Assembly: GCA_003056265.1 (NCBI GenBank)
Contig: NBVN01000004.1
Location: 240,001-272,000, forward strand
Direction: 5' to 3'
Length of the DNA stretch: 32,000 bases
Source of the DNA: Zestosphaera tikiterensis
GTDB lineage: Archaea; Thermoproteota; Thermoprotei_A; Sulfolobales; NBVN01
The notes under the pieces: generated by a model
Database searches by the model: none
Told to the model about the DNA's origin: nothing
Seen by the model: the letters and a program-made list of their open reading frames with translations, nothing else
Shown here: piece after piece, positions 1 to 24,806 of the stretch
How positions within the stretch are numbered: the first letter of the stretch is position 1
Layout of the letters: each line of letters opens with the position of its first letter
Program-made: the position numbers and the translations under genes

Positions 1-170
1 CTAGAGAGAGGCTTGCTTCAATAATGACGAAGAACTTTAAGAGAACCGCTGATAGGTGGGAGCAACTAAAGAGCGATAGGAAGGATAGATTAGTAACCAT
101 GCGTGACGCAGCGTTCGTGTTAGCTGTGGAGAGAGTATATAAGGCAATGAAGGTTAGGGGTTGGATTTAA
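1..170 (+). CDS. gdhA: glutamate dehydrogenase, C-terminal fragment (5' part outside window)
   Basis: Frame open from the window edge (codons from nt 3) to TAA 168-170. Translation ends ...[24 protein letters not shown], which resembles the typical Glu/Leu/Phe/Val dehydrogenase C-terminus (AA-x-x-A-x-x-RV-x-x-AM-x-x-RGW). Confidence 0.65.
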
Positions 171-267
171 AACCAAACATATTTTCAGATATGGGTAGGG
201 TATCGTTTAAGGACTGATGATGTAAAGCTTTTTCCCTTCAACATAACATAATTTTTCGGGTGTGTAA

Positions 268-1072
268 ATGTTAGCTAAGCTCGCTAGGCTTATCGCCGAA
301 TACTGCGTTAATGTAAAGCAGGGGATGAGGTTCTCATCAACGCTTCCTTAGAGGCTTACAACCGAAAGCCTCGCCTCTTTAGGGTGGGGATGAAGGTTTA
401 TAAGCTGTTGTTTCTAGTTCATTTTTGGTGATGATGTTTAATGTGTGTGGGAGGCAAACCTCAAACAAATCAATCAAAGCATACACGTAACCCATACCAT
501 GCCCTCCCACATGAAGTTTTGAGGCCTTCAGAGGTCGATGATTGATGAAGGTATTCCATAACCCCAAGTCCCCGAGGGGGGATAGGGGTAATGGGCTGGA
601 GGCCCGGCCCGGAGGTGAATGAAGAAAGATGTACCTCCAAACCAATGAACCGCCCGAAGAGGGACCCCGCCCTTCAGGACGGGGAGGAGGTCAGCCAGCC
701 ATATGGCGTGGTGTGGAGGTTAGGAACGTTAGGTTAGTCTTTAAGAAGGGTGTGGTTGTTGAAGCTAAAGCTGAAAGCGGTGAGGATTACTTAAGGAAAA
801 TGCTTGAGACTGATGAAGGTGCTAGGAGGGTTGGTGAGGTTGCTTTCGGTCTGAATTACGACATAACTAAGCAAACTAGGGAGATTTTATTCGATGAGAA
901 GATAGGCGGTACAATACATATAGCTTTAGGCTCCTCCTACGTTAAAACCGGCGGTAAGAACGTTTCAGCCATTCACTGGGACTTAGTGAAGGGTATGAAG
1001 AACGGTAGGGTTTTCGCGGATGGTGATCTAATATATGAGAACGGCAAGTTCTTAGATGAGGTGTTTAAATGA
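268..1072 (+). pseudogene. M29 (AmpS/aminopeptidase T-like) aminopeptidase, disrupted by element insertion, internal loss and frameshift
   Basis: N-terminal piece: ATG 268 MLAKLARLIAEYCVNVKQG, then after a 1-nt frame slip at the G-run 321-324, DEVLINASLEAY ending at 359. C-terminal piece 692-1072: [55 protein letters not shown]...IHIALG. Both pieces look like M29 aminopeptidase termini. About 200 central codons expected for the family are missing, and a 332-nt non-coding element lies between the pieces. Confidence 0.7.
360..691 (+). mobile_element. hairpin-ended non-coding repeat element, copy A (MITE-like, IS200/IS605-like ends)
   Basis: Reverse-complement homologue of 10215-10484, with a 42-nt perfect match (423-464 vs 10379-10420) and a 24-nt perfect match (531-554 vs 10290-10313). 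Subterminal GC hairpins at 369-389 (cctcgcc/ggtgggg) and 665-684 (ccccg..cgggg). Preceded by gcTTAC (354-359). Carries roughly 60 extra GC-rich nt (about 561-655) relative to copy B. Confidence 0.6.
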
Positions 1073-1545
1073 GTATTAAAGTAGGTATTGTTGACACGAC
1101 GTTCGCGAGGGTTGATATGGGTTCCGTAGCTGAGAAAACTCTTAAAGAGATCGCTCCCAACGCCTTAATCTATAGATATACAGTACCTGGGATTAAAGAC
1201 ATACCGGTGGCTGCCAAGAAGCTAATCGAGGAGAAAGGTTGCGACGGTGTTATAACTCTTGGTTGGGTTGGTTCAACACTTACGGACAAACTCTCCTACG
1301 TTGTAGCCAGCCTAGCACTGCAGTTAGTACAGCTTAAGACGAATAAACACATAATAGACGTTACGGTTCATGAAGATGAAGCGGAAAAACCTGAAGAGTT
1401 GGTTAAGATAGCTTTAGATAGGACGGTAAAGCACTGTAGGAACTTAGTAACGCTCGTAACTCAAGGAGGGGAGGGTCTTAGGAGATACGCTGGTAAGGGA
1501 TTAAGGCAGGGTAGGGAGGACGTAGGTCCTTTAACGAAGACGTAA
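1069..1545 (+). CDS. ribC: archaeal-type riboflavin synthase
   Basis: 158-aa ORF. The N-terminus [19 protein letters not shown] closely matches the conserved N-terminus of archaeal riboflavin synthases ([13 protein letters not shown]). The ATG overlaps the upstream stop (ATGA). Confidence 0.85.
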
Positions 1546-1580
1546 TTTAAAAAGAGTGTAAAGACGTAGTTAACAAAGCT

Positions 1581-1640
1581 GTTTCACGCCGTTTCACGGC
1601 GTTTCTACGTGGATTTCACGGTATTGTTAATTAAATATAG
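1581..1640 (+). promoter_or_regulatory. four phased TTTCACG-like repeats followed by a TATA-like box
   Basis: gtttcacgcc / gtttcacggc / gtttctacgtg / gatttcacgg at 1581-1620, with a period of about 10-11 nt. The repeats are followed by ttaaatata at 1631-1639, about 27 nt upstream of GTG 1662 (ATG at 1671). Confidence 0.4.
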
Positions 1641-1661
1641 CGTTGAGTTTGTAAGTGAGGT

Positions 1662-3116
1662 GTGTTAAAGATGGCCGTGTTAGGGAGTAAACTTGGTAAA
1701 GGTGTTGCGTTGGCTTTACTAGCTTTGTTGCTAGCTTCAATAACCCCAACAACTAGCTTAACGGCCTTAGCCCAGCAACAGACAACCACTTCAACACGAC
1801 CTTCAACGCCGGCAAACACTTCAGTCCCTGTAAGGAGAGGTCCGGAACACGCGGTTCAAGTGCTTATTGATAGGACGGAGTTACTGATTGCTAGGATTAA
1901 AGACTTCACAAAGAAGTATAACATAACGTTACCTGAAAATTTAAGTACCTTATTAAGTACGGCTGAGGAGTTGGTGAATGAGGCGAAGAACTTACTGCCT
2001 ACAGACGTTAAAACAGCTTTAAACAAAACCTTAGAGGCTATGCATGCTGTTACGCCGATCTACGTTTACGTTATTCAGAACCTACCGCCGCAGGTTAAGG
2101 ATGAATTCGCCGTAAGGAAAACTGAAGCTCAATTTGAGGTAAGGCAGAGGACTTTAGAAGGTTTGAATAAGACCGTCGCTTGGCTTGAAGAAAGAGGTGT
2201 TGAAATACCTGACTGGGTTAAAGCAAACTTAAGCAGAGGGTTTGAGTTAATTCAGGAAGGGAAAACCGCTGTAGCGGAGGGCAACTTAACTAGAGCTAAG
2301 GAGTTAATGAAGGAGATAGATGAGATAATTAAAGACGTTAATAAAGCTTTATGCCTTAACTTAAGGCTTAAGTGGAGGAAAGCTGTCGCGTCTGAAAAAG
2401 CTCTGAAGTCCTTAATAGGTAACACACAAGCTTTAGTAGCTTTAGTCAACAAATCCGCTGAGATGCTTGCCGACGGTAATGTAGAGCAGGCTAAGGTAAC
2501 GCTTAAAATAGCTTTAAGAAACGCTGACAACATCCTCAACTTAATAAACTTAGTAGGTGTTTTACCGCTAGGGGAGGACAACTACAGTAAGGTAATAGAG
2601 TTATGTAATGATATAGCGTCAAAGCTTAAGGAAGCTATAGAAAGCGCTTTAGGTATAATAGATAAAGAAGACCAAGGTACAGCCTTATCAATCTTAAGTA
2701 GCGCTTTAGACAGCGTTGAACCTGAGGTTAACAAGCTTAAAACCTTATGTAGGTGGGCTTGGAGGGAGTTAGAAGAGGTTAGGATAGGTATAGTTAAAGT
2801 TAGAGACATGATTAAAAACGTACATATGCCTAAGTTGATAAGGGTTGTAGTGATACCTAAGATCGTCGGCTTAGGTTCGACAATGCAGATAAAGGCTTCA
2901 TACACATATGTAAAGAACCTCTACGAAAGAGGAGTGATCTCGTGCGGAACTTACAAGTCATTACTAACGTCGTTAAGCAACTTCATAAAACAGTTGATTG
3001 AGGGACTGCAGCAAACTACAGGCCACGGTCCTGGATCTAAGATAGACCTCCTGAAGCAAGAACTTCAGAAATTACTTGATGAAATAAATAACGAATTAAG
3101 CCAGTTGAAGTGCTAG
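1662..3116 (+). CDS. secreted alpha-helical protein of unknown function (signal peptide plus Thr/Ser/Pro-rich linker)
   Basis: 484-aa ORF. The N-terminal hydrophobic segment ALALLALLLASITPTTSLTALAQQ is followed by QTTTSTRPSTPANTS. The remainder is rich in K/E/L/A/N with heptad-like character and has no further TM segment. The start may be ATG 1671. Confidence 0.55.
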   Translation: MLKMAVLGSKLGKGVALALLALLLASITPTTSLTALAQQQTTTSTRPSTPANTSVPVRRGPEHAVQVLIDRTELLIARIKDFTKKYNITLPENLSTLLSTAEELVNEAKNLLPTDVKTALNKTLEAMHAVTPIYVYVIQNLPPQVKDEFAVRKTEAQFEVRQRTLEGLNKTVAWLEERGVEIPDWVKANLSRGFELIQEGKTAVAEGNLTRAKELMKEIDEIIKDVNKALCLNLRLKWRKAVASEKALKSLIGNTQALVALVNKSAEMLADGNVEQAKVTLKIALRNADNILNLINLVGVLPLGEDNYSKVIELCNDIASKLKEAIESALGIIDKEDQGTALSILSSALDSVEPEVNKLKTLCRWAWRELEEVRIGIVKVRDMIKNVHMPKLIRVVVIPKIVGLGSTMQIKASYTYVKNLYERGVISCGTYKSLLTSLSNFIKQLIEGLQQTTGHGPGSKIDLLKQELQKLLDEINNELSQLKC

Positions 3117-3132
3117 TTTAAATCAATCATTA

Positions 3133-3157
3133 AAGGTTTTTAGATAAAAACTTTTTG
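3133..3157 (+). terminator. putative terminator (imperfect hairpin plus oligo-T runs)
   Basis: aggttttt agat aaaaactttttg lies directly after the stop at 3116. T5 runs are the usual archaeal termination signal. Confidence 0.3.
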
Positions 3158-3244
3158 AATTAAAACACCTTTTGCAATCATCAAGAACGGTTTTTAGCTC
3201 AACCCTTTTAATGTTTTTAAATTAGATCTTCTTAGGGTTTAACG

Positions 3245-3700
3245 TTGAATTGGAGGGGGCATTTAGGCTTTAACATGTTCATTACTTCATCCATAGCTTA
3301 CTTCTTAGGCTTTACAGGTTCTTTAGTGAATCAAGTAATAATAATCTCGTCCGTCTTATCGTCTATTCCAGACATTGATTTAAGGATTGAATTATCACAT
3401 CGTGGATTAACTCATAACGTCTTTTTCAGTTTCTTCGCGTCTTTACTAGGTGGTTACGTAACTAACGTTTTAGGCTTAGGCTATACTTTAGGGTTTGCTT
3501 CAGTTTTAACGGCTTTTTTAACACATTTAGTAGCTGATTTACTTACGTATATGCCTTTCAACCCTCTCTACCCTTTAGTGGAGGGTAAATACTCCCTCAA
3601 GTTGTTTAAGTCTGATAACGCCTTAGTGAATAACCTAATGTTGGTTTTAGGTGTATTCACTTACTACGTTTACATAAGGTCTTACGGTTTCTCAATTTAG
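3245..3700 (+). CDS. small multi-pass membrane protein, DUF457/YdjM-like putative metal-dependent hydrolase
   Basis: 151-aa ORF with a TTG start and four to five hydrophobic segments. Conserved-looking His residues (WRGHLG, HRGLTHN, THLVAD) fit the membrane-bound metal-dependent hydrolase family. Confidence 0.5.
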   Translation: MNWRGHLGFNMFITSSIAYFLGFTGSLVNQVIIISSVLSSIPDIDLRIELSHRGLTHNVFFSFFASLLGGYVTNVLGLGYTLGFASVLTAFLTHLVADLLTYMPFNPLYPLVEGKYSLKLFKSDNALVNNLMLVLGVFTYYVYIRSYGFSI

Positions 3701-3798
3701 GAATTATTTCAACGCAGCGTTAAGACATTCTATCTTTAAGTTTAGCGAGGGTAGTACAGCTTTTAGGTAACGCTTCTTAAAAAGTAAGGGAGTGGCGG

Positions 3799-6453
3799 GT
3801 GGTCTGGCATTCAATGTCCATTGATGACGTGCTTAAAGCACTTAACACTAGCGAGCACGGTCTCAAAGAAGCTGAAGCTACTGAAAGACTTTCTAAATAT
3901 GGACTTAACGAGTTAGTATCTAAGAAGAGGTCTGTTATTGACTTATTCGTGAGGCAGTTTACGAATTTTCTAGTGTTGATTTTAATAGTTGCTACTGTGA
4001 TAGCTGCTTTGTTAGGTGAGTTAGTGGATTCTATAGCTATCTTAACTATAGTGTTGATTATGGGTGTTTCAGGATTTCTACAAGAATATAGGGCTGAAAG
4101 AGCTATAGAAGCTTTAAAGAAGTTAACAACGCCTGAAGTTAAGGTAGTTAGGGAAGGTAGGGTAGTCGTCATACCCTCCACGCATTTAGTTCCTGGAGAT
4201 ATAGTTCTATTAAGTGAAGGCGATAAAGTCCCAGCCGACATAAGGCTTATAGAATCTCAAGACTTACGAGTTGATGAATCACCACTTACGGGAGAGTCTG
4301 AAGCAGTTTTTAAAGACCATAGTAAAGTCCTTCCAGTAGATACGGAGTTGCATTCACGTGTTAATATGGTCTTCATGGGTACCTACGTATACTCAGGTAA
4401 GGGTAAAGGAGTTGTAGTAGCTACTGGGATGAAGACAGAATTGGGTAGGATAGCTGAGAAGTTAACTGAAGTTAAGGAGAAAAGAACGTTGCTTGAGGAG
4501 GAGTTGGATAGGTTTGGAAGGAAGTTAGGGCTCGTTATAATAGGGATAAGTGCTGTGGTCTTCGTAACTTCATTAACTCAAGCCCATATGTCTGTAATAG
4601 ATGCTTTCCTTCTGTCTATAGCGTTGGCTGTAGCAGCCATCCCCGAAGGGCTTCCAGCAATAGTTACTTCAGTCTTAGCTATCGGTGCGTATAGAATGTC
4701 TAAAAAGAACGTTATAGTGAGGGAGTTAGGAGCTATAGAGACTTTAGGCGCATGTGACGTAATAGCGTCAGATAAAACAGGCACCATAACTAAAGGTGAG
4801 ATGACCGTTAAGAAAGTTTGGATAGGGTTTAAAGAGTTTGAGGTGAGCGGCCAAGGCTACGAACCTAAAGGGGAGGTGATCCTAAATAATGAGTTAACTT
4901 ACGTCAACGAAGTTAAAACCTTAAGTGAGTTTCTAGCTTTACATGTTAAGAAAGACGTTGAGCTAATGTTTAAGGACGGCTTATGGCAAGTTAGAGGCTC
5001 ACCTACGGAGGGATCTGCGTTAGTTTTAACGTATAAGGTTTTAGGCAGAGATTACATAGATAAGATGGACGTAAGGCTTGTTAAGGTCTATCCATTCGAT
5101 AGGTTTAGAAAAAGGAAAACTACGGTTCATTCTCTAGGAAGTCAATACCTCGTAATATCCTCTGGAGCGCCTGAGTTATTGCTTGACATATCGAGTAAGT
5201 TACGTATCAACGGCGTTGAAGTTCCTTTAAGCGAGAACCTGAAAGAGAGGGTTAGGAATTACGTTGATAGCATAGCTTCGCAAGGCTTCAGAACGTATGG
5301 AGTAGCTTATAAGGTAGTGGAGGACTTTAACGAGTCCTCTGAAGTTGAGGATGTGGAGAAGGACTTCACGTTCTTCGCGGTGTTAGGCATTATAGACCCG
5401 CCTAGGGAGGGTGTGCGAGAAGCTGTTGAAGAGTTGAAGAGGGCTGGAATTAAAGTAATTATGATTACAGGAGATCATAGACTTACTGCTGAAGCCGTAG
5501 GTAGGATGATAGGTCTTGATGAAGGTGAGGTTCTCGAAGGTACCGCCCTAGATAGGATGAGTGATGAAGAGTTAATATCAGTTGTTGAGAAGGTCACTAT
5601 ATACGCTCGAGTCACGCCGGAACATAAGAGGAGGATCGTTAAAGCTCTGCAGTCAAGAGGGCATGTAGTCGCTATGACTGGTGACGGCGTTAACGATGCT
5701 TTAGCTCTTAAGGAAGCAGATTTAGGCGTTGCGATGGGTATTAGAGGAACTGAGGTGGCTAAGGAAGTCTCTAAGTTAGTTATTAAAGACGATAACTTCG
5801 TAACCATAGCTACCGCGGTTAAGGAAGGTAGGATAGTCTTCGAAAATTTAAAGAAGCCGATAAATTACCTAATCCCCGCAAACCTAGGTGAGGTCTCTAC
5901 AATACTCTTCACGGAGCTGGCGGGCTTCCCAACCCCTCTAACGCCAATACAACTGCTATGGATTAACGTAACTACGGATGCTTTACCTGCTCTAGCTTTA
6001 AGTGTGGAACCCCCCGAACCAGACATTATGTTAAGACCGCCGAGGGAGAGAAGCGCTTCATTCTTAACTACGCGGAAGTTAATCTTCTTTACTTCGTTGG
6101 GTGCTTTAATAGGGATTACAAACCTAGCTATATTCAGTTGGGGTTTGAAAGCGTTGAATGAAAGCATCGCTAGAACTTTAGTCTATATGGCTATAGGTAC
6201 GAGTGAATTCGGTAGGGCTCTTTCAGCTAGGTCGGAAGTTAGGAGCTTCCTCTACAGACCGTTTAACCTTTGGTTGTTGCCGGCTATAGCAGCATCTCTG
6301 ACCCTTTTGCTAGCGACGATATATGTAGAACCTCTTCAAGCTATATTTCAAACGTCGTCGGTTGCTGTGGAGTTGCTTTACATACCTTTAATCACGTCCT
6401 TACCTGTATTGCTAGCAGACGAAATTAGGAAGAGGTTGAAGATTAAACTCTAG
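3799..6453 (+). CDS. P-type cation-transporting ATPase (P2-like, Ca2+/Na+/K+ class)
   Basis: 884-aa ORF with TGES (LTGESEAV), the phosphorylation motif DKTGTIT, the hinge TGDGVNDALALKEADLGVAMG, PEGLPA in M4, and about 10 TM segments. The start may be ATG 3814 (MSIDDVLKAL). Confidence 0.9.
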   Translation: MVWHSMSIDDVLKALNTSEHGLKEAEATERLSKYGLNELVSKKRSVIDLFVRQFTNFLVLILIVATVIAALLGELVDSIAILTIVLIMGVSGFLQEYRAERAIEALKKLTTPEVKVVREGRVVVIPSTHLVPGDIVLLSEGDKVPADIRLIESQDLRVDESPLTGESEAVFKDHSKVLPVDTELHSRVNMVFMGTYVYSGKGKGVVVATGMKTELGRIAEKLTEVKEKRTLLEEELDRFGRKLGLVIIGISAVVFVTSLTQAHMSVIDAFLLSIALAVAAIPEGLPAIVTSVLAIGAYRMSKKNVIVRELGAIETLGACDVIASDKTGTITKGEMTVKKVWIGFKEFEVSGQGYEPKGEVILNNELTYVNEVKTLSEFLALHVKKDVELMFKDGLWQVRGSPTEGSALVLTYKVLGRDYIDKMDVRLVKVYPFDRFRKRKTTVHSLGSQYLVISSGAPELLLDISSKLRINGVEVPLSENLKERVRNYVDSIASQGFRTYGVAYKVVEDFNESSEVEDVEKDFTFFAVLGIIDPPREGVREAVEELKRAGIKVIMITGDHRLTAEAVGRMIGLDEGEVLEGTALDRMSDEELISVVEKVTIYARVTPEHKRRIVKALQSRGHVVAMTGDGVNDALALKEADLGVAMGIRGTEVAKEVSKLVIKDDNFVTIATAVKEGRIVFENLKKPINYLIPANLGEVSTILFTELAGFPTPLTPIQLLWINVTTDALPALALSVEPPEPDIMLRPPRERSASFLTTRKLIFFTSLGALIGITNLAIFSWGLKALNESIARTLVYMAIGTSEFGRALSARSEVRSFLYRPFNLWLLPAIAASLTLLLATIYVEPLQAIFQTSSVAVELLYIPLITSLPVLLADEIRKRLKIKL

Positions 6454-6531
6454 CTTCCCTACGTGTTTGAAGCGTGGATGTTATCGTTTAGCTTTATTTA
6501 CCTATTCTTCACGTAATTTTGCGGTGGTTTA

Positions 6532-7917
6532 ATGTTAGAGTTGATTAACAAAGCTTTAAAGAAGGCTGAAATTCTAGGCTGTAGCTATGCTGAGGTAAGG
6601 TTTCAGAGATATAGTTATGAACTGTTGATGGCTGATAATAAGATCTTGAAGGAGCATTCCAGGACGTTTAGAGCCGGCGTAGGGGTTAGAGTTCTGTATA
6701 ACGGAAGATTAGGTTTCGCCTCAACCAACGACTTAACGCTGGAATCCCTTGAAAGAGCTGTTTCGCAAGCTATATCATCAGCTAAGGCTTCCAAGGAGGT
6801 TGTGGAACTTAACATTTTAAACGGGCGTAAGGGTAGGTTCCACGCTCAGTTTAAGATAGACGTAGACGATGTTTCCGAAGAGGATAAGGTTTCAGTGGTT
6901 TTAGAAGCTAACAAAGCGGGGCTTGAGGTGGAGGGGGTTAAATCAAGCGTTACTAGATTAGGTATTCAGAAAGACTTCAGGTATGTGGCTACTTCAGACG
7001 GTAGTGAGTTGGAATATACGTCCACGTTGTTGGGGTTAAGTCAGTTAAGCATTGCTTACGAAGCGGGTAGGATGGAGAGGGTTTCAAATCAGGAATCTTA
7101 CGTAGCTGGGTGGGAGTTTATAAAGAATAGAAACTGGAGTGAGTTCGCTTCCGAGGTAAGTAAACTCGCTAGAGAAACTGTTAAAGCGCATCTCCCACCG
7201 TCTGGAAGGCTTACCGCTGTTGCGGATCCTGAGATGGTCGGCTTAATACTGCATGAAGCGTTCGGACACGCTTCAGAAGGTGATTTAGTTGCTTCAGGTG
7301 CCTCCATACTTAAAGGCAGGTTAGGTGAGACGATAGCGTCACATCAAGTTAGCATTGTTGACGACGGACTTGTTGAAGGGGGTTATTACGTGCCTTTCGA
7401 TGATGAAGGCAACATAAAAGAGAAAACTGTAGTCGTGGATAAAGGAGTTCTTAAAGGCTTCCTCACAAATAAGGAAACTGCGAAGAAGTTAAACCTTCCA
7501 GTGTCTGGAAACGGGAGAGCTCAAGACTTCGTTAACCCACCTATAGTTAGGCAGACGAACTTCTATATGTTACCAGGTGATTGGGGTGTGGAGGAGTTAA
7601 TACGTGAAGTTAAGTTCGGTATTTACCTTGTAGGTAGGGGAAGCTTCGGAGGTCAGGTACATACAGGGGCAGGTACCTTCACCTTCTCAGCAGGTCCTTC
7701 AAGACTTATTAGAAACGGTGAATTAGCTGAAGTCGTTAGAGGTGTGGTGGTCTCAGGATCGATTTTAGAAACTTTAAAGAATGTTATGGGCGTTGGTAAA
7801 GACCTCAGGGTAAGGACGTCGGTTTTTGGAAGATGTGGTAAGGACGGTCAGATGGTGAGGGTAGGTGATGGAGGACCTCACGTACTTATTAAAGACGTTA
7901 TAATAGGTGGTGGTTAA
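6532..7917 (+). CDS. tldD: TldD-family metalloprotease
   Basis: 461-aa ORF with an HExxxH motif (HEAFGHASEGD) and the C-terminal glycine-rich TldD/PmbA fold signature (GDGGPHVLI). Confidence 0.85.
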   Translation: MLELINKALKKAEILGCSYAEVRFQRYSYELLMADNKILKEHSRTFRAGVGVRVLYNGRLGFASTNDLTLESLERAVSQAISSAKASKEVVELNILNGRKGRFHAQFKIDVDDVSEEDKVSVVLEANKAGLEVEGVKSSVTRLGIQKDFRYVATSDGSELEYTSTLLGLSQLSIAYEAGRMERVSNQESYVAGWEFIKNRNWSEFASEVSKLARETVKAHLPPSGRLTAVADPEMVGLILHEAFGHASEGDLVASGASILKGRLGETIASHQVSIVDDGLVEGGYYVPFDDEGNIKEKTVVVDKGVLKGFLTNKETAKKLNLPVSGNGRAQDFVNPPIVRQTNFYMLPGDWGVEELIREVKFGIYLVGRGSFGGQVHTGAGTFTFSAGPSRLIRNGELAEVVRGVVVSGSILETLKNVMGVGKDLRVRTSVFGRCGKDGQMVRVGDGGPHVLIKDVIIGGG

Positions 7918-9248
7918 TGATGGATCTTGAAAAGATTTTAAATAAGTTACTAAGCTTAGGTGCTTCAGAGGCTGAGCTATACTTAGTTAAGAGTAGGGAA
8001 GTATCTCTAGACCTTACTCAAGTTATAAGTAAAGCTAGAACCTCCGAAGTCACTTCGTTAGGTATTAGAGTCGCTATAGGTAAGTCCGTAGCTACTGTGG
8101 GGACGCAGGACTTAAGCGAGAAAGGCGTTGAAGAAGCGTTAAGTAAAGCTATAGCAATAGCTAAAACCACACCACCGGACGAGCATTGGGTAAGCTTCAA
8201 TAAAGAGATAGGGTTTAAACCTCTAAACGGAGTCTACGATAAAGGCACGGCTGAAGCAAGTGCTGAGGATTTAGTCGGCGTTGCTGAAGAGTTACTTAAC
8301 TCGGTTAAGGAAGGCTTTAAAGAAGCCATCCCCGTTAGAGGTGCTGTAACTACCTCAACTCATGAGGTCATATACTTAAGTAGTTATGACGGACCCCTTA
8401 AAAGAGCTGAGACCGCGGCCGGTCTTTACATCATGGCTAAAGTGGAGGAGGCAGGTAAAGTAGGTACGTATGGTGAGAGGGATGTTAAGAGAAGTTTTAA
8501 AGATCTTGAGCCTAGGAAAGTAGGTGTTGAAGTAGGTTCACGGGCTAAAGACTTCGTTGACGCGACTTCCTTAGAAACAGGCGATTATGATGTCATACTT
8601 CATAATGATGTCGTCATTGCCATACTTCCTGTGATGTTGGGGCCCGCTGTTTCAGCGTTAAACATTCAGCAAGGTAGGTCTCCACTCATAGGTAAGAAAA
8701 ACGTTAAAATTCTCTCAGATCTAATCACCGTTGTTGATGGAGGAGCTGACTCCAGCCTACTAGGGTCTAAGGAATTTGATGATGAAGGATGCGCTACTAA
8801 TAACACAGTAATCGTGGATAAGGGAGTTCTTAAAACATATCTTTACGATTCATATACAGCCTATAGGGAAGGAGTTAAATCAACTGGAAATGCCGTGAGA
8901 ACCTACTCAGCTTCACCAACCCCGCAACCTAACCACCTACATTTAAGACCTGGAGACTCCTCACTAGAAGAAATGATTAAAGAAAGTAGGAAAGGGCTCT
9001 TAGTAATGTCAACTATAGGTGAGTGGCTTTCAAACTCGATTAGCGGACATTTAAACGCTACGATAACGCATGCTTACGTAATTAAAGAAGGTGAGGTTGT
9101 AGGCACAGTTAAAAACGGCGTTATCTCAGGTAACTTCTACGAACTACTTAACGTTAAGTTAGCTATGGTCGGTAAAGACTTAAGGATCCTCTATAGAGCG
9201 TCAGCCCCCTCTTTAATGATGCGTGAAGTGAGAGTTGCTGGAAAATAA
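7917..9248 (+). CDS. pmbA: PmbA/TldE-family protein (TldD partner)
   Basis: 443-aa paralogue of the preceding ORF that lacks HExxxH. Its start overlaps the tldD stop (TAATG), the typical tldD-pmbA pairing. Confidence 0.8.
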   Translation: MMDLEKILNKLLSLGASEAELYLVKSREVSLDLTQVISKARTSEVTSLGIRVAIGKSVATVGTQDLSEKGVEEALSKAIAIAKTTPPDEHWVSFNKEIGFKPLNGVYDKGTAEASAEDLVGVAEELLNSVKEGFKEAIPVRGAVTTSTHEVIYLSSYDGPLKRAETAAGLYIMAKVEEAGKVGTYGERDVKRSFKDLEPRKVGVEVGSRAKDFVDATSLETGDYDVILHNDVVIAILPVMLGPAVSALNIQQGRSPLIGKKNVKILSDLITVVDGGADSSLLGSKEFDDEGCATNNTVIVDKGVLKTYLYDSYTAYREGVKSTGNAVRTYSASPTPQPNHLHLRPGDSSLEEMIKESRKGLLVMSTIGEWLSNSISGHLNATITHAYVIKEGEVVGTVKNGVISGNFYELLNVKLAMVGKDLRILYRASAPSLMMREVRVAGK

Positions 9249-9431
9249 CCCTCACATTTTGACTTTTTAAATAGTTCCCTAACATATCAAAGACTTAAAC
9301 CATCTACTCATTCTCATCTTAATGCGTCGTTCCTTAGCCTCGGGAGATCTCGAGAACTTCCGTTCGTAGTTTCGCATAAAGCCAACAAAACATCATTTTA
9401 GTTGTCAACGCTCTAAAGCAGTAAGTTTAAC

Positions 9432-10910
9432 TTGTTCTTAGATGTTGCGTTAATTACCTTTGAGTGTAAGTTTTGTAGGGTTTTGAGCGTGGGCGTATGT
9501 AGTTTATGTGGTAGGGCTTCAAAGATTGTGAGTAGGTCTGTAGGTGTTTGTTATGAGTGTTTAACGAAGCGTGCGGGTGCTTTGACATTCAGTAGAACTA
9601 CCCATGCTTCATATAGGGGTAGCTTAGGACTGCCTGAAGCAGTTCCTGAGGAAGGGGGTAGACGTTGTGTTTTGTGTGTTAACGAATGTTCTATAGGCGA
9701 TGGTCGAGTAGGTTACTGCGGTCTTTGGAGGAATGAAGGAGGTTTACTGAAGCATGTAGCTGGTTTAAATAAGTTTTTAGGTCTTTGGTATCTTGATCCA
9801 CACCCCACGAATTGTGTTGCAGGGCCTGTATGCCCTGCGAACACGGGTAGGGGCTATCCTAAATATACGTTAACAGAGGGTGTTGAGGTAGGGTATTCAA
9901 ACCTAGCGGTGTTTTTCGGTGGGTGTATGCTTAACTGCCTCTTCTGCCAGAATTTCGAGCATAAAGAGATGGTTGCTAAAGCTTTGAAAGGGGGTTTTAA
10001 AACTTTAGTAAGTGTTGATGAAGTTGTTGAGGTCGGCTTAAGCGATAAGGTATCTTGCGTGTGTTTCTTTGGCGGTGATCCAGGGCCTCACGCACCTCAA
10101 GCATTAGCAATAGCGAGGAAACTACTTACGTTAAGTAGTGGTAAAGTTAAGAGGGTGTGTTGGGAGACTAACGGTTTGGAGAATCCTTCAGTAATGAGTG
10201 AGATGGCTAAAATGACCCTCTCCCCGCTTTTAAAGGCGGGGTTTCACTGCTGGGTCTTGAGCGATACCCCTCCTTAAGGGGGTTACGGGATACCTTCATC
10301 AATCATCGACCTCAGAGGGCCTCAAGCATTCATGTGGGAGGCATAGTATGGGTTGTGTGTATGCTTTAATCGATTTGCTTGAGGTTTGCCTCCCACACAC
10401 ATTAAACATCATCACCAAAATAAATTAGAAGAAACAGCAACTTATAAGCTTTTCATCCCCGCCTTAAAAGGCAGGCTTTCAGTTGTAAGCTTAACTTCAG
10501 GCGGTATAGTTAAAATTGATTGGAAGGCTTGGACTCCTCAAGTATATGAAGCTTTAACAGGTGTTAACGGAGTTAAAGCGGTTGAAAGAGTTAAGGAGAA
10601 CGTCAAACTAGTTAATGAGTTAAGCACCTCAAGACCTGAACCACCACTACTTGTCGTAAGCACTCTTTTAGTGCCTGGCTACGTTACGATTGAGGAAGTT
10701 GAACACATAGCTGAATTCCTAGCTAATGTGAACCCGAACATCCCATACGTCTTGCTGGCTTTCTACCCTAAACATCTTATGAGCGATTTACCTACGACGA
10801 GCCGTGAACACGCCTTTAAAGCTTATGAGGTAGCGCGAAATGCTGGGTTAAAGGAAGTATTCATAGGCAATGTATGGCTTCTTTCAAACTCCTACACCGT
10901 CAAAACTTAA
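9432..10910 (+). pseudogene. radical SAM protein (PflA/COG1180-like with N-terminal Cys-rich ribbon), interrupted by a 270-nt element
   Basis: Two ORFs in the same frame (9432-10277 and 10386-10910). The first has CSLC..CYEC and the radical-SAM cluster motif GGCMLNCLFCQNFEH. The second resumes with SLTSGGIVKIDWKAW. An in-frame TAA at 10275-10277 lies inside the insertion. The N-terminal start is uncertain (TTG 9432, TTG 9483 or GTG 9489). Confidence 0.75.
10215..10484 (-). mobile_element. hairpin-ended non-coding repeat element, copy B
   Basis: Reverse-complement homologue of 360-691. Subterminal hairpins at 10222-10241 (ccccgc ttttaaag gcgggg) and about 10459-10476 (cccgcctt aa aaggcagg). 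In element orientation it is preceded by gcTTAC (revcomp of 10485-10490). The inferred length of 270 nt keeps the two gene halves in frame. Confidence 0.65.
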
Positions 10911-10932
10911 AACCCTTTAAAGCTTTAATTCC

Positions 10933-11007
10933 TTGGATGATGTCAAGAACTCCTATGATTGATGATTAAGGACTCGAGCTCTGACAAAACGCTCTTTTAA
11001 AAAGGCG
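10933..11007 (+). repeat. possible degenerate, internally deleted third copy of the element
   Basis: ttggatgatgt (10933-10943, cf. ttggtgatgatgt in A 425-437), atgattgatga (10955-10965, identical 11-mer to A 538-548), then the hairpin cgctcttttaaaaaggcg (10990-11007, cf. the element-end hairpin ccccgcttttaaaggcgggg). Order and orientation match copy A. Confidence 0.25.
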
Positions 11008-11049
11008 ATTATCGACTTAGCTAAGATATTAACTCACAGCTCTTGAGTT

Positions 11050-11346
11050 TTAACCTCCTTCGTAGAGGGTAGGCATTAAAACTACTTCATCACCTTCTTT
11101 TAAAGGAGTTGTAGGTAAGGCTTCAACTCCGTTAATGAAGACCTGTATTAACGGTATCCTTTCTTCAACCTCCCTTAACTCAGGCCTTAACTCAAACAAA
11201 CGCTTCAGTAGGTTCTTAACGTAGGCATCACTTCTAGGTAAGGATATGTAATCAAACCTAACGCTTAATATATCTGCTAAACTACCTAAGTAAACAACCC
11301 TTACCTTCACTACCTCACTATTAAGTTCCTCCTCACTTACTAACAT
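11050..11346 (-). CDS. MoaD/ThiS-family ubiquitin-like small protein with C-terminal Gly-Gly
   Basis: 98-aa ORF ending ...EGDEVVLMPTLYEGG*. The size, the FINGV motif and the terminal diglycine fit beta-grasp sulfur carriers / SAMP-Urm1-like modifiers. Confidence 0.7.
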   Translation of the reverse strand: MLVSEEELNSEVVKVRVVYLGSLADILSVRFDYISLPRSDAYVKNLLKRLFELRPELREVEERIPLIQVFINGVEALPTTPLKEGDEVVLMPTLYEGG

Positions 11347-23102: not shown

Positions 23103-24806
23103 ATGGTAAGCGACATCATAGAAACCTTAGCGAGTGTAGCTAGAGGTAGCAGAAGTAAGTCCATACTAACTAAAGTGGGTGAGGTATGCGGTGATAAGCT
23201 ACTGAAGGTTGAGCGCGTGAGTCCATCAACGATTAAAGTGTTGATTAAGGCTGACTGCCTTCATGAAGTGGCTGAGGTTCTCTCCGCAGAACGTGACGTA
23301 TACTTTAGAACTATGGCCGCTTCCGACGAAAGACCTGCTGAAAACCTCTTTAAGCTATACTACGTGTTCGGAATAGATAGCGAAGGAACTAACATAGTAG
23401 TTGAAGTCCCGACGGACGGCGAGCGGGAAGTCCCCTCCATTTCCGATGTTGTTAAGGCTTGTGATTGGTATGAGCTTGAAGCTCATGATTTAATGGGTGT
23501 TAAGTTTAGTGGTAGGTTTCTTAAAAGGCTTGTATTACCTGATGATTGGCCTGAAGAAATACACCCACTAAGAAAAGACATAACAACAGAAGAAATAAAA
23601 AAACTATATCAACCACAAGTAGTTAAGAGAGCTGTGGAGTTAGGCGTTGAGGAGATTGTTAAGATTCCAATAGGTCCTTACCACCCAGCACTTCACGAAC
23701 CGGAGTATTTCGAGCTATACGTTCGTGGGGAGAAGGTCGTTGACGCTAGATATGTTGGTTTTATGGTTCATAGAGGTATTGAGAAGTTAGCTGAATCTAT
23801 GAAGTACGATCAAGTTCCTTTTCTTGCTGAGAGGATTTGCGGTATTTGTGGTTTTGTTCATTCTGTTTCATATACTCAAGCTGTTGAAGAAGCTTTAAAC
23901 ATTGAAGTACCTGAAAAAACACAATACATAAGAACAATAATACTAGAGCTGGAAAGAATACATAGCCACCTACTATGGATAGGTGTGGCTTTACACTTAC
24001 TGGGTTATGACACGGGTTTCATGCACGCTTGGAGGATTAGGGAGAAGGTTATGGTTTTATCTGAGTTATTAACAGGTAGTAGGAAAACATACGGAATAAA
24101 CTTAGTAGGTGGGGTAAGAAAAGACATAAACAAAGAAAAAATAGAAAAAACAAAACAAACACTAAAGCAGGTGTTAAACGAATATAAGGAATTCGTAGAT
24201 GTTGCCACAAGCGTACCTCAAGTTAGGAGGAGGTTATCGGGTACTGGTGTTTTACCTGGTGGTGAGGCTAGAGCTTATTCGTTGGTAGGGCCTACGGCTA
24301 GAGGTTCAGGACTTAGTAGGGATGTTAGGAAGGACTACACCTACGGCGCCTACCACTTCGTAAGTTTTTCAATACCAACGTATAGTGAAGGCGATAACCT
24401 AGCTAGAACGTTAGTAAGAATAGATGAGGTATACGAATCAATAAACATAATAGAACAACTACTCGACACAATACCATCGAGTAGCGAAATCAAAGTTGAT
24501 TCATGGGAACCACAACCAATGAAGTTAGGACTAGGAAACGTTGAAGCACCAAGAGGTGAAGTAATACACGTGGTAATCACGGGTAAATACGGTCCTTACA
24601 GATGGAGGGTTAGAGCACCAACATACCAGAACCTACAGGCAGTACCCACGATGTTAAGAGGTGTTGACTTAGCTGACGCACCAATAACAATAGCAAGCAT
24701 AGACCCATGCTTCTCATGCACAGACAGAGCAATAAAAATAAACATAAAAACAGGCAAGGTTGAATTCATACCTTTAGAGGTTTTGTCCAGAGGTGGTGTT
24801 AGATAG
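23103..24806 (+). CDS. group 4 [NiFe]-hydrogenase large subunit, fused NuoC-like plus NuoD-like domains (HycE/MbhK-L-like)
   Basis: 567 aa. The N-terminal ~150 aa is NuoC-like. The NiFe ligand motifs are RICGICGFVHS (N-terminal CxxC) and DPCFSCTDR (C-terminal CxxC). A 25-residue tail follows the last motif. Confidence 0.9.
   Translation: MVSDIIETLASVARGSRSKSILTKVGEVCGDKLLKVERVSPSTIKVLIKADCLHEVAEVLSAERDVYFRTMAASDERPAENLFKLYYVFGIDSEGTNIVVEVPTDGEREVPSISDVVKACDWYELEAHDLMGVKFSGRFLKRLVLPDDWPEEIHPLRKDITTEEIKKLYQPQVVKRAVELGVEEIVKIPIGPYHPALHEPEYFELYVRGEKVVDARYVGFMVHRGIEKLAESMKYDQVPFLAERICGICGFVHSVSYTQAVEEALNIEVPEKTQYIRTIILELERIHSHLLWIGVALHLLGYDTGFMHAWRIREKVMVLSELLTGSRKTYGINLVGGVRKDINKEKIEKTKQTLKQVLNEYKEFVDVATSVPQVRRRLSGTGVLPGGEARAYSLVGPTARGSGLSRDVRKDYTYGAYHFVSFSIPTYSEGDNLARTLVRIDEVYESINIIEQLLDTIPSSSEIKVDSWEPQPMKLGLGNVEAPRGEVIHVVITGKYGPYRWRVRAPTYQNLQAVPTMLRGVDLADAPITIASIDPCFSCTDRAIKINIKTGKVEFIPLEVLSRGGVR

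Follow-up and report, generated by a model that had tools for sequence, protein, structure and literature searches.

Two Inverted Copies of a Gene-less Element

A radical-SAM gene in the 32,000-nt stretch of Zestosphaera tikiterensis DNA analysed here (the window) is split by a segment of about 270 nt, and an inverted copy of this segment lies elsewhere in the window. What kind of element is it, and how did it come to interrupt the gene? A repeat search of the window gave two pairs of inverted repeats, 423–503 against 10340–10420 (81 nt, 93%) and 503–565 against 10279–10341 (63 nt, 89%). The earlier note had described the segment in the radical-SAM gene (copy B) as the reverse complement of the other one (copy A); this relation is borne out, and the perfect runs of 42 and 24 nt are exact. 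Copies of the element diverge from each other by 10–17%. Both were also said to lie within unrelated protein genes, and the hosts are indeed a radical-SAM gene (copy B) and an M29 aminopeptidase gene (copy A).

The limits of copy B were determined by comparison with an empty-site allele. Contig L001, obtained from another sample and 98% identical, carries an intact radical-SAM gene. It matches window positions 6523–10211 and 10485–11330 at 98%, and the sole difference is a 273-nt insert at 10212–10484, with no duplicated base and no ambiguity at the junctions. At the empty site L001 reads GCTAAA/GTAAGC (the slash marks the position of the insert), which in the orientation of the element is ...AAGCTTAC/TTTAGCC.... 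Copy B is placed on the minus strand with its left end (LE) at 10484 and its right end (RE) at 10212, antisense to the gene; the previously proposed limit at 10484 is retained and the one at 10215 is moved to 10212. The 5′ part of the radical-SAM gene (9489–10211, plus strand, GTG start) shares 97% identity with P0001, which is intact at 382 aa, and the 3′ part occupies 10485–10910 on the plus strand. The two halves are in one frame, as had been noticed, but solely by virtue of the insert length, 273 being divisible by 3; the insert contains in-frame stops.

In regards to copy A, contigs L004 and L005 carry the empty alleles, in which a 366-aa M29 aminopeptidase gene is intact. Window positions 360–694 stand in place of L004 positions 1710–2339, which are 630 bp of this gene, and neither junction has a duplicated or ambiguous base. 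Copy A (335 nt, plus strand, LE at 360, RE at 694) is sense to the gene. Its start agrees with the earlier assignment, and its end is shifted from 691 to 694. Independent assemblies from other samples (L003 and L006) match the RE junctions with 100% and 99.9% identity, on the RE side only. The event at copy A was more than a simple insertion, and the M29 gene in the window also has a 1-nt deletion in a G-run.

These comparisons show a discrete element, 273 or 335 nt long, that some strains carry and near-identical ones lack. Its insertion point is exactly 3′ of TTAC, without target duplication: the TTAC lies at 10485–10488 (minus strand) directly 5′ of the copy B LE, as seen in the L001 empty site, and at 356–359 (plus strand) directly 5′ of the copy A LE. 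The wider motif is GCTTAC in both cases, in element orientation, as the earlier note had pointed out. The TTAC is also the left cleavage site and the predicted TnpB TAM. The insertions are recent, and two genes are knocked out.

Structure of the Element Ends

We confirmed for both copies the subterminal hairpins that had been reported at each end, as well as the lack of terminal inverted repeats and of target-site duplications; LE and RE are related directly, not inversely. The left end consists of a hairpin preceded by a 9-nt tip whose last bases are AAAG, and the right end of a similar hairpin followed by a 10-nt tail, so that the hairpin feet are 9 nt (LE) and 10 nt (RE) from the tips. The left end of copy B (10458–10484, minus strand) comprises the tip AACTGAAAG and the hairpin CCTGCCT-TTTA-AGGCGGG, assigned by DNA folding and the family alignment. 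The last 4 nt of this tip, AAAG, are identical to the left guide of IS608. The right end of copy B (10212–10279, minus strand) contains a truncated scaffold, the hairpin CCCCGC-CTTTAAAA-GCGGGG at 10222–10241, and the tail AGAGGGTCAT. In copy A, the left end (360–389, plus strand) has the tip AACCGAAAG and the degraded hairpin CCTCGCC-TCTTTAG-GGTGGGG with two G.T pairs, and the RE hairpin CCCCGCCC-TTCA-GGACGGGG (665–684, plus strand) is followed by the tail AGGAGGTCAG at 685–694. The tails end in TCAG or TCAT. Both hairpins of copy B and the RE hairpin of copy A fold as single-stranded DNA. Copy A may be immobile now, because its LE hairpin is degraded.

A TTATAAG-type box is found next to the left end of each copy. 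In copy B it lies at 10441–10447 (minus strand), follows a purine-rich, BRE-like AAAAG, and points towards the RE; in copy A a motif match lies at 398–404 (plus strand).

Distribution of the Family and Relatives with tnpA and tnpB

Contigs from samples that contain this strain, or a close relative of it, gave further copies; samples SRR17771679 and JGI 3300005800 hold the strain itself. L171 carries a 335-nt copy that is 90% identical to copy A, and L172/L173 carry a 273-nt copy that is 87% identical to copy B; each is at another site and directly 3′ of TTAC. TTAC thus directly precedes the LE at all four subfamily sites (copies A and B, L171, and L172). Across the wider family, 42 of the 65 distinct LE-like sites have TTAC directly before them and about 10 more have it 1–4 nt further upstream; its background frequency is 0.0028 per position. 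An exact 20-mer of the central module, TGCCTCCCACACACATTAAA, had no match in the genome or metagenome contig collections. The subfamily relatives were reached indirectly, via an ORF translated from the element.

The ends were found in more than 160 archaeal contigs, with the LE in the form TTAC/AACYGAAAG-hairpin and the RE in the form hairpin-AGGAGGTCAG, the slash and the last base marking the boundaries. Pairs of these ends enclose three size classes, of 211–349, 1305–1397, and 1788 bp. The smallest class is gene-less, the 1.3-kb class contains tnpB only, and the 1788-bp class encodes Y1 TnpA and TnpB. The 1788-bp elements (L130, L167, and L023) occur in Desulfurococcales genomes and are bounded by TTAC/AACYGAAAGCC... 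and ...GGAGGAGGTCAG. Each encodes a 142-aa Y1_Tnp protein (PF01797, E 1.4e-37) and a 425-aa TnpB with the OrfB_IS605 (PF01385) and Cas12f1-like_TNB (PF07282) domains, and the tnpA and tnpB genes in these relatives are bounded by hairpins matching those of the window elements. The LE of copy B is alike in the tnpA/tnpB elements according to the family alignment. The TTATAAG-type box is conserved 35–43 nt from the LE tip in all size classes, and in the full-length elements it is located upstream of tnpA or tnpB. Family members are also present in intergenic DNA. The window itself was said to lack a transposase or TnpB gene, and a tblastn search of its 32 kb with TnpA and TnpB indeed gave only short C-terminal TnpB remnants, which are inside copy A.

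Protein-less derivatives of IS200/IS605 elements are called palindrome-associated transposable elements (PATEs). The TTAC target, the empty sites, and the Y1 TnpA/TnpB relatives support the earlier reading of a non-autonomous, IS200/IS605-like family, and we consider it very probable that both repeats are PATEs derived from archaeal IS200/IS605-family insertion sequences.

Alternative Explanations

Small size, lack of coding capacity, and several copies within genes, all typical features of MITEs, would fit an element mobilised by a DDE transposase and bearing terminal inverted repeats and target-site duplications, the GC hairpins being near the ends by chance. The empty-site alleles refute this explanation, since comparison with them reveals neither duplicated bases nor ambiguous junctions. 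Moreover, the ends are directly rather than inversely related, insertion is confined to one strand, always 3′ of TTAC, and matching ends enclose Y1 TnpA/TnpB elements, which leaves a DDE-type MITE with practically no chance. The alternative that an archaeal bulge-helix-bulge or group I/II intron-like element is spliced from the radical-SAM mRNA, leaving a functional gene, would account for the structured insert, its length in multiples of 3, and the otherwise intact gene halves. It is very improbable, because the LE-to-RE and scaffold orientation is antisense in the radical-SAM gene and sense in the M29 gene, no Rfam intron family matched at E values up to 10, intergenic and longer tnpA/tnpB-bearing members exist, and the boundaries are the transposon cleavage sites TTAC and TCAK.

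Both copies match the Rfam family HgcC, a listed gene whose function is unknown, and could be read as a resident, non-mobile small-RNA gene that was duplicated and whose position in genes is incidental. We regard this as similarly improbable: the empty sites contradict it, strains that are 98% identical differ, with base-pair precision, in whether they carry the element, the HgcC-like part makes up the RE-proximal segment of elements with tnpB, and HgcC has already been linked to the RE tetraloop of IS1341-type elements (PMC4615843). Slightly more room, though still little, is left for dead relics, that is, fragments of once-mobile IS200/IS605 elements whose transposition and transcription have ceased in this lineage, with no present action of TnpA or TnpB. 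The missing transposase in the window, the degraded LE hairpin of copy A, the truncated scaffold of copy B, and the 10–17% divergence between the copies are in line with this explanation; against it, insertions are polymorphic among strains with 97–100% identical flanks, which argues for recent activity, and the truncated B-type is present at two different sites, so that it must have moved after truncation.

RNA Scaffold and Central Module

We compared both PATEs with a covariance model (R1) built only from five tnpB 3′ ends, in which compensatory changes were observed in 7 of 41 pairs, a number reached by none of 500 shuffles. Positions 548–694 of copy A (147 nt, plus strand) matched model positions 1–150 with a score of 95.9 bits (E ~1e-31), ending exactly at the RE tip. 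Copy A also matched the Rfam families sot0042 (38 bits, E 1.7e-8, against a gathering score of 88) and HgcC (31 bits, E 1.9e-5, against a gathering score of 50), and the same region is 75% identical to L167 over 146 nt (blastn). On the R1 score and the sub-threshold sot0042 and HgcC matches, together with the blastn and tblastn results, we assign the RE-proximal region of copy A as a complete TnpB-type guide-RNA (omega/reRNA, sotRNA/HgcC-like) scaffold. At the gathering thresholds, Rfam gave no match anywhere in the window.

In regards to copy B, the R1 score was only 16.4 bits, which does not indicate a complete scaffold, and that of the B-type copy in L172 was 17.8 bits; copy B lacks about 60 nt of the scaffold core of the family (helices 3–5). 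Its HgcC match was 24.7 bits (E 9e-4, gathering score 50). The earlier suggestion that the element possibly carries a structured RNA therefore holds for copy A and not for copy B. Having lost most of the scaffold, copy B probably depends on its ends alone.

The 140-nt central module (10280–10419, minus strand, in copy B) is the best conserved part between copies A and B. In copy B it contains an 11-bp stem, TGTGGGAGGCA/TGCCTCCCACA, with GATGA-rich motifs on its flanks. No homologue of the module was found in the tnpB-bearing loci compared, and its only relatives are in other PATEs. Its folding energy was not better than that of shuffled sequences (z = −0.5 for copy A and +0.5 for copy B). The z-scores of the whole elements (−1.6 and −2.6) are not convincing alone, and the support comes from the comparative data.

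A C/D-box sRNA or k-turn was also considered on account of GUGAUGA and CUGA motifs. This candidate was dropped; CUGA occurs in copy B only and is absent from copy A, L171, and L172. A candidate pseudoknot pairs a hairpin loop (CCTCAAGC in copy B, CCTCAAAC in copy A) with the downstream GCTTGAGG / GTTTTGAGG; it shows one compensatory change, yet is weakened by L171 and L172 and is a hint only. A 317-nt indel of L172 had no Rfam match.

Proposed Mode of Transposition and Guide-RNA Function

We propose that Y1 TnpA supplied in trans would bind both hairpins on the single-stranded top strand and, like the TnpA of IS608, use the 4 nt located 5′ of each hairpin foot to find the cleavage sites. The enzyme would then excise a single-stranded circle and paste it 3′ of another TTAC. 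The AAAG directly 5′ of the LE hairpin and the cleavage site TTAC are as in IS608, and the register between guide and cleavage site at the RE is ambiguous.

The PATEs appear to retain the LE-adjacent BRE/TATA-like promoter of the parent insertion sequence, and copy A also retains the whole RNA scaffold, which usually shares sequence with the 3′ end of tnpB. We infer both the promoter role of the box and the transcript from the sequence motifs. Given the promoter and, in copy A, the complete scaffold, a transcript leaving through the RE would be an omega/reRNA, with the neighbouring flank as its guide. The would-be guides are TTTAGCCATCTCACTCATTA for copy B (10192–10211, minus strand) and CCAGCCATATGGCGTGGTGT for copy A (695–714, plus strand). 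In the empty alleles, TTAC is followed by a 20/20 match to these guides, namely to TTTAGCCATCTCACTCATTA in L001 and, in the intact M29 allele L004, as GATTAC directly followed by CCAGCCATATGGCGTGGTGT. With such an RNA, a TnpB made elsewhere could cut empty sites, in which TTAC is followed by the flank sequence, and thereby help the element to be retained. The guide role of the flank is predicted from the TnpB literature (PMC8612924, PMC10055086). It is a further, doubtful idea that, with a PATE-specific central module and their own promoter, these PATEs would be self-contained mobile guide-RNA genes.

Three events can be reconstructed, and in two of them the interval between two same-strand TTAC sites has been exactly replaced by the element. 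The replaced intervals are the 630 bp of the M29 gene (copy A) and 52 bp at window positions 11238–11289 (L172/L173). A mundane explanation is that two insertions in direct orientation were followed by recombination between them. We tentatively put forward, as a doubtful though not negligible idea, that Y1 TnpA couples RE cleavage with cleavage at a downstream same-strand TTAC, giving a site-specific flanking deletion. The RE would be joined to the DNA beyond the downstream TTAC, and the interval would be set free as a circle. Our literature search found no description of TnpA-mediated adjacent deletion in IS200/IS605 elements.

Comparison with Known Systems

The window elements resemble IS608 of Helicobacter pylori, which is moved by Y1 TnpA in a "peel and paste" manner: both are inserted 3′ of TTAC, lack target-site duplications and terminal inverted repeats, and have subterminal hairpins at both ends with AAAG directly 5′ of the LE hairpin foot. 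In IS608, the left cleavage site is TTAC, the left guide is AAAG, and the right cleavage site lies 10 nt 3′ of the hairpin (PMC3201880). The latter distance is the same in both, with TCAA in IS608 and TCAG or TCAT here (PMC3201880). In contrast, the distance from the left cleavage site to the hairpin foot is 9 nt here and 19 nt in IS608, and the window elements have unrelated GC-rich 8-bp stems with TTYA loops, an archaeal host, and no genes. An IS608-like TTAC/AAAG targeting code is probably present in archaea.

The work on haloarchaeal PATEs preceded the discovery of TnpB guide RNAs. It described PATEs, the PATE-derived RNA VNG_R0052, and the sotRNAs of IS1341-type tnpB genes (Gomes-Filho et al. 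2015, PMC4615843). Haloarchaeal PATEs and sotRNAs (Rfam RF02656, sot0042) share the gene-less combination of IS200/IS605-type LE and RE and the UUCA-type RE tetraloop with the window elements. The former are transcribed (PMC4615843), whereas a transcript is predicted in the window. The window elements further differ in their sub-gathering Rfam scores, thermophilic crenarchaeal host, extra 140-nt central module, and TATA-like box. HgcC has been tied to the RE tetraloop of IS1341-type elements (PMC4615843). The 3′ half of HgcC (Rfam RF00062), a hairpin CCCCGCCC-UUNA-GGGCGGGG followed by AGGAGGUCAG, corresponds to the RE of the present family; both window copies and L172 match it at 24.7–31 bits against a gathering score of 50. 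In the catalogue, HgcC is a gene whose function is unknown, not a transposon end. The "unknown function" RNAs HgcC and sot0042 are thereby connected to TnpA/TnpB elements that target TTAC, namely to their right ends.

The PATE-like mini elements of ISGst in Geobacillus stearothermophilus encode omega RNAs that are used in trans by TnpB (Meers et al. 2023, PMC10055086). Like the window elements, they have the ends of tnpA/tnpB elements, no protein gene, an RE omega-RNA scaffold, and the flank as the guide, and their TAM is the TnpA target motif, the same concept as here. They differ in their bacterial host, end sequences, and TAM, and their function is established experimentally, whereas that of the window elements is predicted.

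The element is of a known kind and leaves the understanding of the IS200/IS605 family unchanged, save possibly for the recurrent TTAC-to-TTAC replacement. In an uncultured crenarchaeon from a hot spring, it provides a clean natural case of IS200/IS605 mobility, with filled and empty alleles at base-pair resolution, in which spread can continue after most of the guide-RNA scaffold has been lost. In annotation, these elements account for two pseudogenes and for assembly breaks at repeats.

Copies and boundaries

The element interrupting the two genes is an archaeal palindrome-associated transposable element (PATE) of a TTAC-targeting IS200/IS605 family, and it carries the scaffold of a TnpB guide RNA. 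A repeat search of the window paired 423–503 with 10340–10420 (81 nt, 93% identity) and 503–565 with 10279–10341 (63 nt, 89% identity), both inverted, which bears out the claim of the earlier note that the two stretches are inverted repeats; the perfect runs of 42 and 24 nt described there were both exact. The next longest repeat pair in the window was 36 nt at 81% identity, and none came near the pair formed by copies A and B. In the pairwise alignment, the copies had one end in common (GGCTTTCRGTTGTAAGC, plus strand of copy B) and a well-conserved centre, and the second end was alignable at the hairpin only.

The joined radical-SAM protein has an uninterrupted homologue of 382 aa (P0001, 97% identical), with many further homologues being more distant. 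The contig encoding P0001 (L001; Logan, SRR14702244) was 98% identical to window 6523–10211 and 10485–11330. The empty site in L001 reads GAGATGGCTAAA directly followed by GTAAGCTTAACT, and the filled site in the window reads GAGATGGCTAAA, the element (ATGACCCTCT...GGCTTTCAGTT), and GTAAGCTTAACT. These junctions indicate that copy B spans 10212–10484 (273 nt), inserted with zero duplicated bases and zero positional ambiguity relative to L001. On the minus strand, ...AAGCTTAC precedes the element (AACTGAAAGCC...GAGGGTCAT) and TTTAGCC follows it.

An intact 366-aa M29 aminopeptidase gene is present in contigs L004 and L005, to which window 1–359 and 695 onward align. Copy A (360–694, 335 nt) occupies the place of L004 1710–2339. 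Its left end (LE) directly follows GCTTAC, as does that of copy B, and the 630 bp replaced end in GATTAC; both copy A junctions therefore immediately follow a TTAC that the intact gene contains. The observation of two elements in the earlier note thus stood, and the empty sites shifted its limits slightly to 360–694 and 10212–10484. In the 5' part of the M29 gene (window about 296–303), GGGG replaces the GGGGG of L004 and L005, causing a frameshift that reflects either further pseudogene decay or a homopolymer sequencing error. An ATG within copy A starts a 147-aa ORF (629–1072, plus strand) that continues in the same frame through what is left of the M29 gene, its C-terminal third; in L006 this ORF is annotated as a gene with PF02073, and the putative promoter of the element might drive production of a truncated M29 protein.

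Short-read assemblies made independently for the window's strain reproduced the right end (RE) junctions, in contigs L003 (100% identical to window 665–10250) and L006 (99.9% to window 598–4586). Both contigs break within the element, as a repeat would predict. The breaks at the L003 ends (window 665 and 10250) and the L006 start (window 598) fall in the RE-proximal part of both copies, which is consistent with more copies elsewhere in the genome.

Family and target specificity

At least 120 metagenome contigs and at least 44 genome contigs contained the copy A RE hairpin with its tail (CCCGCCCTTYAGGRCGGGGAGGAGGTCA); the hosts were mostly Desulfurococcales, Acidilobus, Caldisphaera, Thermococci, and other archaea, plus a few bacteria. 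Pairing of RE sites with the LE motif AAYYGAAAGCC identified 18 elements with two genuine ends, which fall into three size classes: 211–349 bp without genes; 1305–1397 bp with mostly tnpB only, some frameshifted; and 1788 bp with two genes (L130, from a Desulfurococcales MAG; L167, from a Desulfurococcaceae MAG; and L023). This gene pair encodes a 142-aa Y1 transposase (PF01797, E = 1.4e-37) and a 425-aa TnpB (PF01385 and PF07282). TTAC stood directly 5' of 42 of the 65 distinct LE-like sites and 1–4 nt further upstream in about 10 more, against a background frequency of 0.0028 per position.

When a translated ORF of copy A was used as a protein query, further subfamily copies were detected in JGI samples 3300005800, in which the window's strain is present, and 3300005801. 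L171 (335 nt, 90% identical, 5' flank GTCGTTAC) belongs to the A-type, and L172 and L173 (273 nt, 87% identical, 5' flank GTTTAC) belong to the B-type. Together with copies A and B, all four subfamily insertion sites follow TTAC. Minimal 39-nt elements, AACTGAAAGCCCCGCCCTTCAGGGCGGGGAGGAGGTCAG directly after TTAC, were also observed (L013, L016, L024, L034, L043, L056, L093, L094, L097, L098, L106, and L145); they carry the LE tip with its putative AAAG guide and the RE tail on a single hairpin, which indicates that the two ends are fused.

Comparison with IS608

IS608 is cleaved on the left 3' of TTAC, 19 nt 5' of the LE hairpin, and on the right at TCAA, 10 nt 3' of the RE hairpin; the 4 nt 5' of each hairpin foot (AAAG on the left) are guides reading both cleavage sites (PMC3201880). 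The window family shares the TTAC left cleavage site, the AAAG before the LE hairpin, and an RE tail of exactly 10 nt, and the sole difference in this comparison is the LE spacing of 9 nt instead of 19 nt. The tail ends in TCAG in the A-type and most of the family and in TCAT in the B-type (two independent copies). Both copy B hairpins and the RE hairpin of copy A are foldable as single-stranded DNA. The LE hairpin of copy A, which contains two G.T pairs, was not the fold predicted for this end, and copy A may thus be immobile.

Replacement of TTAC-to-TTAC intervals

In L172 and L173, from a related strain, a B-type copy stands in place of 52 bp downstream of the radical-SAM gene (window 11238–11289 versus L172 608–881), which in element orientation begin directly after TTAC and end in TTAC. 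With the 630 bp of the M29 gene (window 356–694 versus L004 1706–2339), exactly one same-strand TTAC-to-TTAC interval was replaced in each of two of the three reconstructable events. Since TTAC accounts for no more than a few per cent of positions in either interval, two such coincidences are unlikely by chance. The replacements fit two insertions at neighbouring TTACs followed by recombination; they also fit a flanking deletion in which TnpA joins the RE to DNA beyond a downstream TTAC, a side reaction that would share the chemistry of integration. A literature search found no description of such TnpA-catalysed joining.

RNA scaffold and internal modules

Copy A matched the Rfam families sot0042 (38 bits, E = 1.7e-8), a transcript that overlaps the 3' end of IS1341-type tnpB, and HgcC (31 bits), and copy B matched HgcC (24.7 bits), all at permissive thresholds and below the gathering scores. 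We trained a covariance model (41 pairs) on five sequences from the 3' ends of tnpB genes; compensatory changes were present in 7 of the 41 pairs, a number reached in 0 of 500 shuffles. Copy A (548–694) scored 95.9 bits (E about 1e-31), with a match spanning the full model and terminating at the RE tip. The scores were 81 bits (E = 1.6e-26) for L171, 120–124 bits (E about 1e-40) for other 330-nt PATEs, and 57.4 bits (E = 2.5e-18) for L164, a more divergent 349-nt PATE; copy B and L172 gave 16.4 bits (E = 3.6e-4) and 17.8 bits (E = 1.2e-4), respectively. The alignment shows that about 60 nt are missing from the core of the scaffold in the B-type. Short remnants of the TnpB C-terminus are still readable in copy A. 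The RE tetraloop already links sotRNAs, a PATE-derived RNA, and HgcC (PMC4615843).

PATEs and full-length elements have a TATA-like box (TTTATAAG or CTTATAAG) after AAAAG, 35–43 nt from the LE tip, which lies upstream of tnpA or tnpB in full-length elements and is directed into the RNA module in PATEs. This box and the scaffold are separated by a central module of 140 nt, which contains an 11-bp stem and is more conserved between copies A and B than any other part. No counterpart was detectable in any of the tnpB-bearing elements retrieved, and in other PATE subfamilies this position is occupied by a long hairpin whose sequence differs (z-scores −2.2 to −3.6).

Mechanism and alternatives

These results show a discrete mobile element of the IS200/IS605 type. 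The earlier reading, a non-autonomous IS200/IS605-like element possibly with a structured RNA, is supported by the empty sites, TTAC flanks, relatives encoding Y1 TnpA and TnpB, and the scaffold match. The empty sites contradict and exclude a MITE of the DDE type, and the insertion polymorphism likewise excludes a static HgcC gene, despite the HgcC matches. The insert is unlikely to be an intron: its orientation differs between the host genes (antisense in one, sense in the other), its tips are transposon cleavage sites, and no intron model matches it. That the copies are recent relics without an active partner is the one live alternative left.

The established biochemistry of the IS200/IS605 family suggests that Y1 TnpA would act in trans on the single-stranded top strand, with excision and then re-insertion 3' of TTAC. 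From the TnpB literature, an RNA started at the putative internal promoter and extending past the RE would have the flank as its guide (PMC8612924; PMC10055086), and omega RNAs that are used in trans are frequently encoded by PATEs (PMC10055086). The empty alleles L001 and L004 have TTAC followed by a 20/20 match to the would-be guide flank, and TnpB made elsewhere could thus cut them. The B-type, which is present at two sites yet lacks most of the scaffold, shows that the scaffold is dispensable for transposition.

Other observations

Related strains have a 317-nt insertion at window 11120/11121 (L172 173–489; also L173); G(G/C)TTC borders it on each side, and it has no TTAC-type junction and no Rfam match. 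Within it are a TATATAAG motif and a hairpin, GGATCCACCTA...TAGGTGGAT. At window 23569–24462, three copies of a 48-nt A-rich unit, with 79% and 63% identity to the reference copy, lie within a 567-aa ORF (23103–24806), which probably encodes an internally repetitive protein.
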